64,000 nucleotides of DNA from Eledone cirrhosa (Eukaryota): contig OZ024756.1 of the NCBI GenBank assembly GCA_964016885.1, positions 10,416,001 through 10,480,000 on the forward strand, read 5' to 3'. The position numbers and the translations under genes were made by a program. The notes under the pieces were generated by a model that was not told where the DNA came from, did no database searches, and was given only the letters and a program-made list of their open reading frames with translations. Shown here in pieces: positions 50,497 through 63,595 of this stretch (positions within the stretch are counted from its first letter, which is position 1; every line of letters starts with the position of its first letter).

Positions 50497-50888
50497 TCAT
50501 CATCATCATCATCATCATCAGGTTTAGCGTCCGTGTTCCACGCTTGCATGGGTTTGGACGGGGGTTTTCCCACTTGAGGCAAGAGTGGTTGTCTTGCTCG
50601 CATAGGACTGTCTGGCGGGTTTTCTACAGCTGGATGCCCTTCCTAACACCAACCACATTTACAGTGTGGGGCTGGGAGGTTTTTACCGTGTTGCCTACAC
50701 GGCCACATTTACAGCGTGGACTGTGTGTTTTTTGTCGTGACACCTACACGATCTCATTTGTTTCGGCCTGGATGTTGTGGGACCAACATAACTTTACATT
50801 GAAAGGGGCGGTGTGGGTGGGGTGGAGGTGGTGGGACGGGGGTGTGTTTTGATAGAGGTGCCTACTGACTGTAGTAGGTTTTTACTTT
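50497..50888 (-). mobile_element. RTE 3' UTR fragment (second subfamily)
   Basis: Reverse complement of ~34582-34972. Confidence 0.9.
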
Positions 50889-50957
50889 GTATATTTATAT
50901 ATATATATATTTATATATATATATATTTATATATTTATATTTATATATATATATATT

Positions 50958-50990
<33 letters not shown>

Positions 50991-50993
50991 TTA

Positions 50994-51024
<31 letters not shown>

Positions 51025-51053
51025 TTATATATTTATTTATATATATACATATC

Positions 51054-52937
51054 GAGACTCTCGACAACAACACCACGGAATCCACCACACCCAGATTCCC
51101 GATATACCAACTAGATCGCCCACTCTATCCACCGCCCGCCAACCGCGAGCTGGAAGAAAAACTCTCGAGACTAAAACATTCCGTATTTAACATCTTACGG
51201 AAACAGAAGAAGATGGCCCCTAACCTCTCCAGGACACAACAACTCGCCCTGAAGAACCTACGGAATAAGGAACTTATTTACTTACCATCCGACAAAGGTA
51301 AAGAGTTCTGCGTCATCTCTCAAGCCACATACAATAACCTAGCCTTCGAACACCTAAGCGACAGTGAACTGTACACAGTGATCCCGGACATGACCGCAGC
51401 CCAAATCGAAAAACAGACCAACTCCATTTGGTTCGATATCTGTAGGAGAAGACAACTCCCGAATAAAATTAAACTCAACTACACCACTAGAAATAGCAGA
51501 CTGCCCACTTTCTACCACCTCATCAAGACCCACAAGAATAGCACTAAGACGCATATAAGACCCATCGTCTCTAGCATAGAAGGACCCCTATACAAAATTT
51601 CCTGGCTTCTCTCCCAGGTCCTCAAGCCTCTACTCTCCACCTTCCCCGGACATGTCAGTAGCTCCGACGAAGTTATACGTAGATTACACCAACTCCAGCC
51701 AGAACAACTTAAACTTAATAAATACGCTTTTAGCCTCGACGTTGTCTCCCTCTACACTACAGTCCCCGCTCACCCAGCTGTCGATTTATTGACGGACTGC
51801 GTGGTCGCAGAGGACATCCACTGCTACGGCCTCCATCCGACGGACATACACCAGCTTTTGTCCTTCACAGTAGACAACACGTTCTTCACCTTCCACCACC
51901 ACACATACAGACAGACAACAGGATTACCCATGGGATCCAGCCTCTCTGGCCTGCTGGCCATCACTTACATGAACCAACTAGAATGCCGAGCCCTCAACAC
52001 CTGCCATTCCCATGCCTTCTTCACCCGATATGTAGATGACATACTCATCCTTACATCATCCCGTGAAGAGGCAGAGAAAATATACACAACATTCTCCAGC
52101 ATGGACGCCAGTATAAAGTTCAGCATAGAACACCCCGATGACCGCGGATCCCTATCCCTGCTGGACTTCCAACTCAGGGTAACAGAGGAAGGCAACATCC
52201 ACACCTGCTTCTATAAAAAATCCGCCAGCAGGGACCTGTTCGTACATTTCAGATCGGCCCTCCCACTCGGTGCCAAGTTCGGATACATAAAGAACGAACT
52301 GGCACGTATCAAGAACAAATGCACCGACGCCAGAGACCGAGACACACACACCACACATTTCCTGGAAGTACTCAAACTGAACGGATACACGACATCCACC
52401 ACAAACCGTGCCAGAAAGAACAGAGGACACCACACCCGAGGCACTAACACTTGCTTCCTGAAGCTCCCACACTTCAGTGAAGAAACAACAACAGCCATCC
52501 GCAGAGCCATCAGACGAGAAGGTCTGGATATTCAACTGGTCCATTCGGGTCCTTCTTTGCGTGAACGGCTAGCTAAGAGACACTCCACCAGACATGACAA
52601 CTGCTGCAGACTAGCCAACTGCCCCATCAACGACACAGACCTATGCCACCAGGCTTACGTAGTTTACAGACTAGAGTGTGACAAATGCAACAACTTCTAC
52701 GTAGGTAGCACCACCAGACCACTCCACATAAGAATAAAAGAACACCTCAATACTAACGCTTCCTCATTTAAGAAACACCTAGTTAAATGCAAAAACACTG
52801 ATAAAAACATAACAGTTAGGATAGAAACTAAAGAAAGAAACCTCGGCAATCTTAGAATCAAGGAAGCACTCATTATAGATAGAACACATCCACCAATCAA
52901 TAATAGACTAGAGCTCAACACCCAATTTATAACCTGA
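51054..52937 (+). CDS. PLE reverse transcriptase + GIY-YIG endonuclease (open from 51054; first Met at 51213)
   Basis: [40 protein letters not shown], Cys-rich linker, VVY...FYVGST...R..EH, E...I...P.IN. Confidence 0.92.
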
Positions 52938-54427: not shown

Positions 54428-56532
54428 TCGTTTCTGAATTTGTTTAGCAAGATTCTTTATCTGAAATCGTGTGTTGAAACCGATATTGTTATACTTTGGG
54501 AGGGTCATGTTGCCAATAAGAAACACACGCACCAGTTGCTTTCACTTCAATTTAATTTAATATATATTTATAAATTTACAAATTTATAAATTTCTGGTTG
54601 GTTGGTTGGTTCCACAACCAGATAGTTGTTTATATATATATAGTCATAGTTCTTTCGTCACACACTCTGTGACCTCTTCAGTGACTGGGGATTTCTTTCT
54701 TCGTTTCTGTGCCTTTCCTTTCTTCTATCCTACGCCATTTTGTTTGTGTGTGGGTTGCGTGCTCAGTTTGCGCATGCGCCACATCCGGGTGTCTGTGTGT
54801 GTTTGTGTTCATTTTTCTATTTTTCTATTTATATTTGTTTGTTTATTTATTTATTTATTGTTGGTTGGTTGTTTGTTCTATGTGTGTGTGTGTTTTCATT
54901 TTGTCTTGTGTGTGTTTTCATTTTGTGTGTGTTTTCAATTGTAAGTTGTTTGTTCTATGTGTGTGTGTGTTTTCATTTTGTCCTTAATTGTAAGTTGTGA
55001 TGTTGCTGTTCCACTCATATTTTCTATTTAATTTTGGTTTTAATTCTTTTATGCTTACTGCCTCTGTAATTTGCCTAAACATTGCGTCTTTCTTGTGTGT
55101 GGATTCTATTTTTATTTCTATGCTCTCTAATTTACCCCTGTGTTCTATCTTAGCATGTTGGTAGAGCACAGATGATTCTTTACTATCTTGGAGGTCTCGC
55201 CAGTGTTCATTTATTCGTTCCCCTATACTACGAGCTGTCTCACCTATGTACACTATATTTTTGTTTCTACATTGTCCTTCAGTACATCTTATGCTATATA
55301 CTACATTTCTAGTTTTACAGTTAATATGGGGGCTTATTTTACAGGTTATACATTTCTTATCTATACATGAGGGTCTTTGGAACGGGTATGTCTTGCTAAT
55401 AAGTGTTTTTACGGAGGTACCAGGTCTTTCTACTATCTTAATATTGAGATTATGTTTCTTTAGGGCCCTTCTAAATTTGTAGGCTAGTTCGCCTCTAGGG
55501 GTTGTATTGATGAACATTACACTCTGGTATTTATTGCTATCATACCATGAGTTTATTCTATTGGCCTTGTTCTTAGTTCTTTCTATTCTATTCCAAAATT
55601 TGCTCCTATACAAGGGGCAGGTCCCATTTATGTCATTATTTACCATTTTTTCCCATTTGGTTCTGGCTCCTTTATACACTCTGATTCTATCTCTCTGATT
55701 GTAACCAGAGAACTGCATACGGTGGATGAAGTGTTGTATGTGTCTCTCTAGTTCTTCGGGGTTGCACATGCGAGACACATTTCTCATCACCCGTACCAAA
55801 TCCGCAATTAGTATGTTGATTTTGGTATGGTCCGAAATGGCCGAGTTTCGGTGGATCAGATGTTTGGAAGTCATGGGTTTGGCATAATGGGAATGGAGGA
55901 TTTGTTTTTGGTTGTTAATAGTATCTAACCAGAGCTCTGTGTCTAGTACAGGTAATCGATGGTTGGGGTGTCTACTTGGGTAGTCTATAGTAACTCTAAT
56001 GCTCTGGTGGATGGAGTTTGCTATTTGCTGGATGCTTTCCATTGTGTTTTTCTCTGGTTCCTGACTGTTCTTTAGTGGGGGTGTCTTAACTACGATGTTT
56101 ATATCATCTACCTAGCGGGAGTACATTATCAGGGTTAAGCTGTCTTCTAATTGTTCATTAAGTTTTTGTTTAAGTCTACTGTCCCACCATACCATGAACA
56201 AGTTAGCTATGTCGCCTGCAATGCTAACACCAATGGCTGCTCCTTCCTCTTGGGCATATGTTTTACCATTAAATCAAGACCAGCAAGAGGCAGACCACCT
56301 ACCATTACCTCAATGGCCAAGAAAACCCACACAGATAGATGGAACGGGTGGACCAGAGCCATACGGACACCCGAAAACCACGATGAACTGAAGAAAATGA
56401 TTGCACATGTGGTAGGGGCCAGCATAAAATTAACCCTTAAGGAACATATGTTCAAATTTAATGGTAAAACATATGCCCAAGAGGAAGGAGCAGCCATTGG
56501 TGTTAGCATTGCAGGCGACATAGCTAACTGTA
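54428..56532 (-). mobile_element. Penelope-like element (Neptune-like Cys linker), 5'-truncated with inverted RT segment; pseudogenised
   Basis: ORF 54984-56042 (LPVLD, CxxxxCxxC, VVY...YIGET.R...R..EH); upstream YSR*VDD has a stop in the catalytic motif; 56275-56529 inverted. Confidence 0.92.
54642..54686 (-). ncRNA. Minimal type I hammerhead in the PLE 3' pseudo-LTR
   Basis: Minus strand: AGTCA-CTGAAGA-G-GTCAC-agagtgt-GTGAC-GAAA-GAAC-TA-TGACT. Confidence 0.8.
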
Positions 56533-56672
56533 TATAAATAAGTAAATATATATATATGTTTGATGTGTATAGTTAGATGTAAGTGTATTCATGTATTAAA
56601 GTGCTTATATATATATATGTATGTATATGTGTGTATATGTATGTGTATGTATATATGTATGTATATATATAT

Positions 56673-57840: not shown

Positions 57841-58478
57841 AAATGAAAATTAGAGTTAAAACTCCAATTGGAACCCTGTAACTATTAAGCTCCAAGTATA
57901 AAATACTGAGCCGATTAATAATATATATGCAGTAAGAAACAAATGTGGTTTTTCAACCCTTGTAATATTAGACACACGGTTTACTGTGTTTCTTACTGCA
58001 TATATATTATTAATCGGCTCAGTATTTTATACTTGGAGCTTAATAGTTAGAGGGTTCCAATTGGAGTTTTAACTCTAATTTTCATTTATATTTCTGCTCC
58101 CTCACAAGTCGAGCTTATTAAGTTGTGTGTGTTGACTGTTGTTTCTCTTCAATACACGCTTACCACGTTTGACTAGCGGCGCACGAGGTGGTAAATTTCA
58201 TCTTTCTGTGTGAACGTTGGTACATAGTGTTTGTTGCATTTAATCAGATTCTTTCGCTGATGATGCCCAAGATTATCTGTTACAAACACACTCAGGGCGA
58301 AACAGATTAGGGATAATCTGTCCGAGAGAGATAATGGTTATTGAGGCGGTTTGTATAATAATATATTTTTATTTTATCATTCTGTCTGCTTCTTGGTTAA
58401 ATATTTCAAACAAATGTGGTTTTTCAACCCTTGTAATATTAGACACACGGTTTACTGTGTTTCTTACTGCATATATAT

Positions 58479-58643: not shown

Positions 58644-59478
58644 GCAAAGTTTTATTTAAATTGTTGGGTTACAACGAGTAAATATTTATAACTGATATAA
58701 AAGCACTCAACAAGTATTTGGAGTATATTTACGATATTAAATAAATGGAAACTATATTTATAAAACCATATTTATTTCATTATACATATTTCAGGGATAC
58801 CAAATTAAATCATGGTATGCCTTCATCAGACAAAATACAATATATAACAGTTTTACAAATAAGCTTTGACGTACCCTTTTAAAATGCAACCATTATTTTT
58901 GGAAGCCATCTGGATAGTGAATTGTTTATATTATTTTAATAAGTCTTAGTGTTAAGGACAATTAAAAAAAGACGGAGAGAAAGAAAAAAAGACGAAGAGA
59001 AAGAAAAAGAAAAAAACGTGGAGAAATATCGGAGAGAGAGAAATGCATGGAGAAAAAAGAGAGAGATAAATAAAGACAGGGGGAAAGAAAGAAAAAAGAA
59101 AAAAAGAAAAAAAGAAAAAAAAGAAAGAAAAAAGAAAAAGAAAAAAAGAAAAACGAAAAAGAAAAAAAGAAAAAAAGGAAGAAATAAGAAAAACAGAGGA
59201 AAGCAACAGAGAGATATCAAGTCATCAGACAGATAGAAAAACTCAAGAGAGAGAAATAATATATATAGAGAGGGGGAGATAATGAAAACTTTACGTCATG
59301 TTGAGTTAACAATTTATATGAAATGAATAATAAAAATATAAATATTAATATTCATGAATGGGACATAAATATATAATATGAGAAATTAAACAGTGTTTAA
59401 TAATGATTATATGTTTAGTTTAAAACTTGAGATCAATATACTAAAATTTGAGAAACCACTATCTTACGGCAAAGATAG

Positions 59479-59528
<50 letters not shown>

Positions 59529-61329
59529 GTCCTGAGAATAGAAATTATGTCTACTCAGGTCTACAATATAGACATACAAAACGCAAATGATTTCTCTTAA
59601 TCACTGCTATACATTCCTTGTGATATAAAAAGTTCACAGTATATATACATAAATATATACGATTAACATTCATGCCTTCATATATACGATTACCATTCAT
59701 GCATTTAACATTTTGTTAAAATTATGCATATCTACAATCAAAACTGCGTGGGTAGGCATGCACACACATAACTCTCACCCACACACATACATATATATAT
59801 ATATACACATACATATGTATAAATAAATATTTGCGTGCGTCTTCACCAATTGTTAGACCCGCATCACTCATGTACACATACAGACAGATATACAATCATA
59901 AAAAAACCTATAACACTTTTATATGCATGTTAATACACACATACACATCTGTATAGAGATAATCAAGTGTCAATATATTACTAAAGGATTATACTTTGGA
60001 AATATAACTATAACAATATAAATTTAAAATACCAAAGGATTATATTTTGGAAATACAATTATATCAGTATAGTCTAAAGGACAAACGAATTCTAGAGATA
60101 TCAAAACATTAAATATCTTCAAAAACACTATAGAGTATCTTAAGTTAACATAATATGTTTCATATATTTAGTATAGAAATTTATCCTACGTATATTTTAA
60201 TCAAGATATTGAAAGGGTAGACTTATGAAAATTATGAGAAGCTATCAGAATAAAAATAAAAATAAAAGTTAAATAAATATTATATCAATATAATTTAAAA
60301 ATTTAAAAACTTTAAAAAGTTTTTAAAAAGTTTAAAAAATTTAAAAATTTTAAAATTTTAAAAAAGCCTAGGATTCTACAGATATCCTTATATTTAGTAT
60401 AGAAATTTATCTTACGTATATTTTATTTAAGACATTGGAAGTATAAACATTTTAGAGTAGTTTATTATATCTATGTTTATATTTAGGAAGAAAATTTAAA
60501 AAGAAAAAGGTGAAGGAATGATTTATCAACAGGTTTCTAATGATTTATCAATAGGTTTCATATATTAACTAAATTACTTAATTACTTATACTACATTTTA
60601 AATTTATATTTATATTTAAACGTTGAGTTCAATCTCTGTCTGCAGCAACTGAATAAATTATTCCTTAAATTAAGGGAATTTTTGGACTTTAATATAAAGA
60701 ATATTTCTTCAATACAAAGATCATAATTTTCTGAAGAGGAATTAAAAAGAGTAGCTTTTTTAAATAATATTCCAAGTCATCGAATATTTAACATTATCTC
60801 GTTTAAGGTCCCATAGTAGGCTAAATAGCGAAGTTGAAGATTTTTTGTTTGGATCTGTGAAAGAATTTTTATGATTATTGAAGCGAAATTTAAATTCTGT
60901 AGAGGTAGAACCGACATAGTTAAATGAATTTAAATTAGTTTTAACATTACAATTATACACTACATTTTTAGCTAAGCAGTTGTTATTTAACGGACAGTTA
61001 GATTTATTTCTACAGTTACAGTTATTCAATTGAATATTGCTTGGGTTATTATTGGTATTTTGGTTAGGCTTCCAAAAATAATGGTTGCATTTTAAAAGGG
61101 TACGTCAAAGCTTATCTGTAAAACTGTTATATATTGCATTTTGTCTGATGAAGGCATACCATGATTTAATTTGGTATCCCCGAAATATGTATAATGAAAC
61201 AAATATGGTTTCACAAATACAGCTTCCATTCATTAATATCGCATATCTATTCCAAACACTTGTCGAGTGCATTATATCAGTCATAAAAATATCTACTTGT
61301 TGTATCCCAACAATTTTAAATAGAACCTT

Positions 61330-61335
<6 letters not shown>
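58644..61335 (-). mobile_element. Naiad-like PLE (family A): 3' pseudo-LTR, long 3' UTR, GIY-YIG remnant, inverted pseudo-LTR at 61068-61335
   Basis: ORF 60760-61029 NCNCRNK..CPL..NCL..NVVY...YVGST...FK.RFNNH; HHRs at 58773-58837 (-) and 61139-61199 (+); (TA)n on both sides. Confidence 0.88.
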
Positions 61336-61365
<30 letters not shown>

Positions 61366-61370
<5 letters not shown>

Positions 61371-61808
61371 TTCAACTATTAATAAAATAGATGTTCCTGC
61401 GATCAATCAAATTTTATTATACATATCTCAGAGGCACCCGAATCAAGTTAAATAGCACGTCCTCATCAGATAAAACAAAATGATACATGACATACACTGA
61501 CATGTCAAATAGTTCAGACTTAATCAAGGTAGTGACTACCTTGATTAAATCTTAACCATTCAACACGTCAGGGCATGTCATGTATCATTTTGTTTTGTTT
61601 TGTTTTATCTGATGAGGACGCACCATTGAAGTTGATTCAAGCACCTCCGAAACATGTATAACAAAATCCAACTGATCACAAGAACATCCATTTTATTAAT
61701 ATTTGAATTTAATATTAATAACTCTGGAAAATATTTCTCTGTAGAGTGCTTTCAATCTACTGTAAAACTCATTCTTTGATGTACTCATTGAATCTTGTTT
61801 AACTCTTT

Positions 61809-61812
<4 letters not shown>
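61366..61812. mobile_element. Fold-back pair of family B pseudo-LTRs with HHRs at 61411-61475 (-) and 61603-61667 (+)
   Basis: Inverted arms centred at ~61534 (TAATCAAGGTAG-TGA-CTACCTTGATTA); homologous to 24310-24665. Confidence 0.85.
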
Positions 61813-61855
<43 letters not shown>

Positions 61856-61858
<3 letters not shown>

Positions 61859-62320
61859 AAGTTTTATTTAAATTGTTGGGCTACAACGAGTAAATATTTA
61901 TAACTGATATAAAAGCACTCAACAAGTATTTGGAGCATATTTACGATATTAAATAAATGGAAACCACATCTACAAAACCACATCTACCTCATTATACATA
62001 TTTCAGGGTTATCACATTAAAAAATGTTATGCCCTCCTCAGACAAAACACAATATAAACAGTCTTACAAATAGATAGATTTGACATACCTTTCAACTTCA
62101 TCTTCCATTTAAAAAGTTGATTTGGTAGTGAAAAATGTTAGGGACAGTTATAAAAAGAAAGAAAGAAAGAAAGAAAAAAAGAAAGAAAGAAAAAACGAAG
62201 AAAAAGAAGAAATGCATGCAACTAAATAGAGAGAGATATATATAGAGAGATAGATAGAGAGAGGAATTCATGTAAAGAAACAGAGAGAGATATATAGAGA
62301 GAGGAAAAACACAGAGGGAT

Positions 62321-62361
<41 letters not shown>

Positions 62362-63595
62362 AAATAGAGAGAGATAGACAGAGATAGAGAGAAAGAAAAT
62401 AGGTAGTTGGGCACCAGTTGAATGACGTATCAATGATATATTTATTTATTTATTTATTCATTTAGTTCTAGTATTAATATAGAGAGAGATATATGTGGTT
62501 AGGAGAGAAAACAGCCGTTACATAGAGAGAAAAGAAAAATATCCAGACATAAACGAGGCAGATTTAAAACATTATGTTTCATCAATGTAAAAATATAAAT
62601 TCGTATGAATCAGGCATTATAATGTAAATATCAGTATTCATGAATGAGACACGTATCAATAATGTGTGAAAAATAATGATCATATGTCTAGTTTAAAAAT
62701 TCCTAGGTTTATATTAGAGTTGAGATAAAATAGGTTATCCCAGATTCGATACTATAGACATCCATGTGAATTTACGTGATCAACTCTGCAAATTCCTATT
62801 TCACACGAAAACATTCTCATTGTGCTATAAAATTCTAGTATACATATATGTGTACATACACACAAATATATATAGAGTCTACATTAATTTTAACAATACT
62901 ATTCTTGTCTTTACTCTACATGATTATCGTTCAAGCATAAATAAAAAACAGATATCAATATATCAATAAAAATATCAGAAATAAAAAATAAAAAAATATA
63001 AAAATATTAAAAATAAAAATATTAAAAATATTAAAAATATTAAAAATAAAAAATAAAACATAGTATGCCCCGCAAATCAACCACAGAGATCAACCCTTCA
63101 AGGTTAATTGACAATATATTTTCTTTCTTTCCTCCTGTCTTTATTTATCTCTCTCTTTTTTCTCCATGCATTTCTCTCTCTCCGATATTTCTCCACGTTT
63201 TTTCTTTTTCTTTTTTCTCTCCCTCCGTCTTTTTTCTTTCTCTCCGTCTTTTTTTAATTGTCCTTAACACTAAGACTTATTAAAATAATATTAAAATAAT
63301 ATAAACAATTGACTGCTAGCGTAAACCTCTTCAAATGAAGTTGATGTTTATTACGGTATGTCGAATATATTTATCTATAAAACTGTTTATATTGTATTTT
63401 GTCTGATGAAGGCATAGCATATTGTTAATATGATATCCCCGAAATATATATAATGAAATAAATATGGTTTTATAAATATAGTTTTCCATTTATTTAATAT
63501 TGTAAATATACTCCAAATATTTGTCGAGTGCTTTTATATCAGTTATAAATATTTACTAGTTGTAACCCAACAATTTTAAATATAACTTTACATAT
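61856..63595 (-). mobile_element. Non-coding family A PLE remnant with inverted pseudo-LTRs; HHRs at 61987-62047 (-) and 63395-63460 (+)
   Basis: 61856-62100 aligns with 58644-58880; 63120-63595 is a reverse-complement homologue of 58644-59095. Confidence 0.82.

Follow-up and report, generated by a model that had tools for sequence, protein, structure and literature searches.

Clustered one-strand T>C changes in inverted ends of likely Penelope-like elements of Eledone cirrhosa suggest germline fixation of ADAR-edited RNA

A nested fold-back of transposable element ends in the genome of Eledone cirrhosa carries T>C changes on one DNA strand throughout its four hairpin arms and almost none outside them (53/313 T versus 1/810 T; Fisher P = 5e-30, compared with an unedited sibling locus and family copies). 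We consider it very likely that these began as A>G edits made by the host ADAR on fold-back Penelope-like RNA and were then fixed in the germline by reverse transcription. An earlier note on this DNA had proposed a reverse-transcribed, hyper-edited fold-back RNA, and this reading is supported by the spectrum of the changes, the strand on which they lie, where they stop and which bases adjoin them. Coordinates are positions in the window, the 64,000-nt stretch that was analysed (contig labelled C17, 10416001-10480000; genome 3.0 Gb), unless a contig is named.

The composite locus (Table 1) consists of an inner family-B palindrome (61365-61715) with a 96-nt tail, enclosed by inverted family-A arms, with (TA)n in between.

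Table 1. Features of the composite locus (window coordinates; T>C counted on the + strand)
Feature	Positions	Strand	Observations
Family-A 3' tail	58644-58740	-	Right-outer-arm subfamily, joined to a body of another subfamily; unedited
5'-truncated element, likely Penelope-like	58732-61066	-	Terminal-repeat arm 58732-58907, 3' UTR, GIY-YIG-like endonuclease fragment from 60763
Left outer arm, inverted and tailed (family A)	61067-61332	+	14 T>C, all within the part pairing with the right outer arm
(TA)n spacer	61333-61364		No C
Left inner arm, family-B palindrome	61365-61527		T>C 10/11 substitutions
Centre of inner palindrome	61528-61541		No change
Right inner arm, family B	61542-61715	+	T>C 13/13 substitutions
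Family-B tail	61716-61811	+	Outside the long stems; T>C 0/40 T
(TA)n spacer	61812-61855		No C; sibling locus stops here
Right outer arm, 3' end of second family-A element	61856-62092	-	16 T>C from 61881 to 62067
Remainder of second family-A element	62093-63593	-	Own inverted end 63320-63593; no T>C excess in compared segments

The one-strand signature and the elements that carry it

Clustered T>C on the + strand was found in every arm whatever its orientation (Table 1), as the earlier note had described, and the sequence strings that it quoted are all present where it placed them. Its hand counts were close: about 22 of about 30 one-way mismatches between the inner arms became 24 A.C, 0 G.T and 5 other in 167 aligned pairs, and about 12 T>C in the left outer arm became 14 of 16 substitutions relative to the sibling. 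In the right outer arm, 16 of 19 substitutions relative to the majority of 29 family copies are T>C. The strand-wise spectrum of the arms as a whole (53 T>C, 0 A>G, 0 G>A, 1 C>T and 4 transversions) shows strong T>C enrichment.

The unedited sibling (L002, C1:51.73 Mb) shares the layout of 58732-61811 and is without the right outer arm. Relative to it, T>C accounts for 37/40 substitutions across the left outer arm and the two inner arms, 0/3 in the family-B tail and 1/13 in 1,070 upstream bases, and the loop has no substitutions. Most other copies have T at each of the 37 sites shared with the sibling, which bears out the claim that T is ancestral, and the C alleles of the locus do not form a normal subfamily. 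The 28 other differences between locus and sibling divide into 16 locus-derived, 9 sibling-derived and 3 undecided; hence, both loci are young.

Regions lying next to the arms have almost no T>C. The element at 58732-61066, which is common to the sibling locus, has 1 T>C at 737 T and is thus not edited; a third family-A arm (58732-58907) shows T>C at 0/60 T, and the first part of the left outer arm (61067-61095) at 0/10 T. Between the arms of 24 other family-B palindromes (from 30 loci, 5 dropped as duplicates or rearranged), we counted 0–4 A.C and 0–3 G.T mismatches, and A.C and G.T are balanced in 134 other inverted repeats examined (266 versus 259; 10 rows were left out that were the composite locus seen repeatedly). 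The earlier note had disfavored CpG decay and APOBEC-type G>A, and the confinement to one strand, the ancestral T and the lack of G>A in the arms agree with this. Arms without A>G or G>A on the + strand exclude CpG decay and APOBEC-type editing, as well as selection for wobble pairs. The new C precedes G (CpG) at only 5 of 53 sites. In family-B palindromes (L003-L029), arm-to-arm divergence is usually below divergence from other copies; as the arms are closer to each other than to those copies, the second arm was likely made anew at each insertion.

The elements are likely to be Penelope-like, judging by sequence features: copies are truncated, inverted ends have an optional tail and targets are (TA)n, while the protein evidence is weak. 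An inverted terminal repeat with a tail at one end, inserted into (TA)n, is present here, and the endonuclease fragment from 60763 gives a weak Pfam GIY-YIG match (E = 0.016, below the cut-off). By eye, the + strand of the right inner arm contains what we take to be a hammerhead-like core motif; Rfam returned no hammerhead match to the motif region at E ≤5 (fold z −0.65), and only sub-threshold hairpin matches overall. The available text of three accounts of Penelope-like elements (PMC8557442, PMC3846280, PMC11167929) describes the same 5'-truncated copies, inverted ends with one tail, microsatellite targets and C-terminal GIY-YIG-like region. Tails are about 90 nt here, compared with 30–40 in those elements, and a genomic editing signature is present here, whereas none was seen in the available text of those accounts.

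Elsewhere in the window, a further palindromic element, which contains an internal direct repeat (57845-58470), adjoins the composite on its left and has 0 A.C and 0 G.T mismatches in 111 pairs. A 693-codon frame, stop to stop, at 50856-52937 (+) matches Pfam RVT_1 and GIY-YIG above the cut-off and apparently represents an intact Penelope-like element of another family. A further RT/GIY-YIG-like frame (54984-56537, -) is interrupted by a stop and has no Pfam match above the cut-off.

Neighbour context and RNA folding

Read as A>G on the minus strand, the changes at the locus depend on the 5' neighbour (U 31/112, A 17/114, C 5/48, G 0/38). The depletion of 5' G that the earlier note had suggested looking for is therefore complete, and the context pooled over four other edited hairpins (see below) is similar (U 83/200, A 59/181, C 7/72, G 1/51). 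The order U>A>C>G is that given for ADAR in the available text of PMC3113232, and depletion of G upstream of editing sites is described in that of PMC5625713. On the 3' side, G is favored at the locus (10/27, P = 0.012), with a flat distribution in the pooled four events; the preference for a 3' neighbour is weak in octopus, according to the available text of PMC5625713.

Prediction of the minus-strand RNA fold pairs exactly the four nested arms. The (TA)n spacers are also predicted to be paired, yet contain no edits, for which the chance is about 3e-5 at the after-U rate; slippage turnover or template jumps could lie behind this. The genome has an ADAR2 gene with the catalytic motif, which shares 95% identity with its Octopus vulgaris counterpart. 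Adenosine-deaminase family matches occur at four places (C6:13.64 Mb, C1:146.45 Mb, C1:320.73 Mb and C25:17.35 Mb), the one on C6 being ADAR2.

Further edited hairpins and competing explanations

The earlier note had advised scanning the genome for inverted repeats with same-strand A>G; motif searches recovered at least eight further edited hairpins, and a random sample of 1.15 Mb gave no clear case. A family-A motif of 33 places, two of them forced to C, matched 29 times, an opposite-arm motif 37 times and a transversion control 0 times, counts that are lower bounds and concern one family only. Grouped by backbone sequence, the edited hairpins represent at least nine independent editing events including the composite locus, all in the same Penelope-like end sequence; the further events comprise three asymmetric hairpins, four mirrored palindromes and one amplified hairpin. 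One-way, other-way and other mismatches number 26/0/0 in hairpin C2, 51/2/2 in C28 (51 in 171 pairs) and 41/1/1 in C13, and comparison with family copies confirmed the T>C direction at all three. For hairpin C2 there is likewise an unedited sibling (C3:283.81 Mb), whose arms are perfect; relative to it, 27/32 arm substitutions in C2 are T>C, and the tail has no T>C (0/36 T). Some T between its arms were changed as well (13/190); hence, the arm limit is not strict at C2. The edited strand of every asymmetric hairpin terminates in a repeat in sense orientation, tailed or untailed. This fits the two start sites described in the available text of PMC11167929, although support is weak because any palindrome offers such an end. 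A near-perfect, unedited palindrome (L161 5845-6155, C13) lies 700 bases from a heavily edited one, and would be either a later arrival or a sequence outside the edited RNA.

In the four palindromes, each arm mirrors the edits of the other (13, 11, 11 and 6 T>C relative to their nearest copies), and all of these edits are A>G when read on the repeat's sense strand. Among the 37 opposite-arm motif matches, no closely similar mirrored pair had the opposite polarity. Mirrored edits of fixed polarity indicate that the edits likely predate the making of the second arm. Such a pattern would arise if insertion involved copying a single arm of an edited RNA twice, and with sense-strand A>G in 4/4 palindromes it is stronger support than the strand ends of the asymmetric hairpins. 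Arm-to-arm gene conversion may be an alternative for the mirroring.

Among 193 inverted repeats in the random 1.15 Mb (115 pieces, each of 10 kb, with one satellite piece skipped), there were 0 clear edited cases, and mismatches were balanced (A.C 811 versus G.T 778). Family-B motif searches gave 2 and 3 matches, with several C only in the composite locus, and thus no second hyper-edited family-B copy. Together, these results suggest that the process is rare per hairpin. A skewed candidate from the random sample (L281) was rejected as a tandem satellite. Another, of a different family (L191 7964-9157, C4:150.0 Mb; skew 12/1/2), was set aside since its 8 T>C are clustered in one arm, are mixed with G>A and lie in a non-ADAR context.

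One edited hairpin has been amplified to 38 copies at about 32 sites on many contigs (union of two motif searches, hand count). Its mismatches number 36/3/6 (one-way/other-way/other), with 32–38 one-way across copies, and the copies share edits and fall into nested subtypes. The hairpin sits 3' of a frame with RT-like and endonuclease-like parts in 7/11 fetched stretches, those with a coding part, and this carrier frame is 97–99% identical between copies. Variants shared among 31 amplified copies are T/C in 17 of 22 cases in about 390 hairpin columns, compared with 5 of 12 in 1,738 columns of the carrier body (8 copies, a moderate control). This excess suggests further rounds of editing. As an element edited in its non-coding ends can still transpose, edited copies can found lineages and be edited again.

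The carrier frames contain RT-like and endonuclease-like motifs and have no Pfam match; they show weak likeness to the RVT_1 and GIY-YIG frame at 50856-52937 (E = 0.003) and have 299 unnamed relatives. The endonuclease fragment of the 58732-61066 element shares 50% identity with the carrier's endonuclease region. In carrier frames L155, L162 and L173, a long asparagine/threonine/histidine-rich stretch lies between the RT-like and endonuclease-like parts, which recalls the N-rich inserts mentioned in the available text of PMC3846280. About 10 kb to the right of the window, a further carrier copy (L063 9199-10000 and beyond) is 96–98% identical to the hairpin-bearing ones, and no family-A hairpin was seen beside it.

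These further cases bear on explanations other than edited RNA. An error-prone polymerase (polymerase-eta-like) or a DNA deaminase may have mutated one strand of the hairpin DNA during or after insertion, which we judge to be very unlikely. The signature of polymerase eta is A>G after A or T, with which the 5' U/A preference here overlaps, and the unedited TA spacers and the missing parent would fit an event in place, as would the partial change of C2 outside its arms. Nonetheless, the changes end at the arm limits, are transitions at 53 of the 54 changed T and reach the density found in C28. Moreover, the mirrored edits have fixed polarity in both arms, and the 134 and 193 other inverted repeats are balanced, which also tells against such an origin.

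An assembly or polishing artefact, for example, from RNA-derived reads or base-calling errors in hairpins, is highly improbable. The edited bases were read from the assembly, and four public runs (X1-X3 and X5) yielded short family fragments only, none spanning the edited bases. However, an artefact would not be expected to yield 38 copies of one hairpin with shared edits and nested subtypes across many contigs, nor mirrored copies kilobases apart that carry edits in both orientations, and near-perfect palindromes of the same families were assembled without skew.

There is very little chance that ADAR, or reverse-transcriptase error, acted on an RNA:DNA hybrid during reverse transcription rather than on folded RNA. 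In model substrates, the DNA strand of a hybrid is open to editing by ADARs, according to the available text of PMC12925331, but hybrid editing would span the whole template and not spare the 810 T outside the arms, and editing of cDNA predicts opposite polarity in mirrored palindromes. Selection that maintained a hairpin in the RNA while allowing G.U pairs on the strand that is transcribed can be dismissed almost entirely: although every change leaves a G.U pair on the minus strand and the predicted fold energy is little shifted (−221 versus −235 kcal/mol), selection predicts C>U too (G>A on the + strand is seen at 0/102 arm G), cannot yield 53 changes where flanks of locus and sibling differ by about 0.5% and offers no account of the 5' G depletion.

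A route from edited RNA to inherited DNA

In the favored reading, ADAR editing of folded RNA followed by reverse transcription, elements would insert into (TA)n beside one another, often with inverted ends, an architecture that results in long RNA stems. A minus-strand RNA would fold on itself, with family B forming the inner stem and family A the outer one, and ADAR would convert about 17% of the paired A to inosine. Reverse transcriptase reads inosine as G; the element's own enzyme would do so and integrate the copy in a germline cell. Editing followed by target-primed reverse transcription leaves both arms with T>C on a single strand of the DNA.

The earlier note took the minus strand as the sense strand of the flanking elements, which holds for the endonuclease fragment and the right outer arm. 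Judged by tail position, the left outer arm and the inner family-B element are instead oriented to the + strand, and they would accordingly have been edited as antisense passengers. A search for an unedited parent locus, also advised in the note, was successful in part, since the sibling covers 58732-61811 and is without the right outer arm. For this reason, we infer, rather than observe, one read-through transcript spanning the entire nest. No locus with the whole nested layout was found among the best 40 candidates of each DNA search. As regards retro-insertion, C2 has a full unedited sibling and the composite locus has one for 58732-61811 only; TA flanks hide target duplications.

At the left end, the tail at 58644-58740 has 0 differences in 102 nt from its nearest copies, the exact 92-mer spanning the join of tail and body occurs once in the genome, and none of 14 other bodies of the left-end body's subfamily (fetched loci) has a tail of this type. 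This unique chimera of two subfamilies points to a template switch, and it is likely the place where reverse transcription began. An origin of the left tail from the same molecule was rejected because it is without two edits of the right tail, as was a circular-RNA origin because the sequence beyond the second tail is of another subfamily. As for how the locus was assembled, read-through from a nested parent that is now absent has roughly an even chance; template jumps between duplexed RNAs are a tentative, rather unlikely option, and conversion of the existing locus by edited cDNA made from it is more doubtful still.

RNA edits are known to become DNA through reverse transcription in plant mitochondria (retroprocessing), where the process differs in that it concerns C-to-U changes, organellar mRNAs and gene conversion, with no ADAR, hairpins or transposition. 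The nearest precedent is edited inverted repeats in retroviruses. ADAR-type A>G hyper-editing occurs in Rous-associated virus as well as in avian leukosis virus, and, as here, affects an inverted-repeat region of a reverse-transcribed RNA, at up to about half of adenosines (PMC12925331, available text). Those viruses are infectious, whereas a host germline retrotransposon is involved here, and genome-wide recurrence and re-amplified edited lineages, seen here, are not reported for avian retroviruses in the available text of that source. APOBEC editing of LTR retrotransposons is similar in involving a host deaminase and strand-biased clusters in genome-fixed copies, recognized by parent-daughter comparison; it differs in producing sense-strand G>A via C deamination of cDNA, with no tie to RNA stems (PMC4866542, PMC2873906, available text). 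The changes described here are A>G, confined to stems and in an invertebrate non-LTR class, and APOBEC-type DNA editing is reported as absent from 19 invertebrate genomes in the available text of the same two sources. At the RNA level, octopus shows very high hyper-editing and many predicted dsRNA loci, and Penelope RNA of a lizard is heavily edited (PMC5625713, PMC9068888, available text). Hyper-edited animal repeats likewise have G depleted upstream of sites, but they are recognized from RNA-versus-genome differences, while here the signature lies in the genome sequence itself. Among the titles and abstract openings of openly available papers, we found no report of ADAR edits that are germline-fixed, recurrent and re-amplified in a retrotransposon.

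We think it probable that the octopod ADAR has been a recurrent germline mutagen of Penelope-like elements, with RNAs edited, reinserted and inherited, edited ends founding lineages that are edited again, and edits barcoding both arms made from one RNA. If so, RNA editing would be a source of inherited mutation and would feed back into the inherited genome of the most heavily editing animal group, as an A>G counterpart, in an invertebrate, of APOBEC editing of retroelements. The edited copies would form a fossil record of germline ADAR activity and its sequence preference. Genomes may already contain such copies, which would confuse RNA-editing calls and the dating of repeats. Since the edits would mark both the template strand and the molecule, questions about Penelope-like transposition, such as the use of sense or antisense templates, the origin of inverted arms and template jumps, would become testable from genomes alone.
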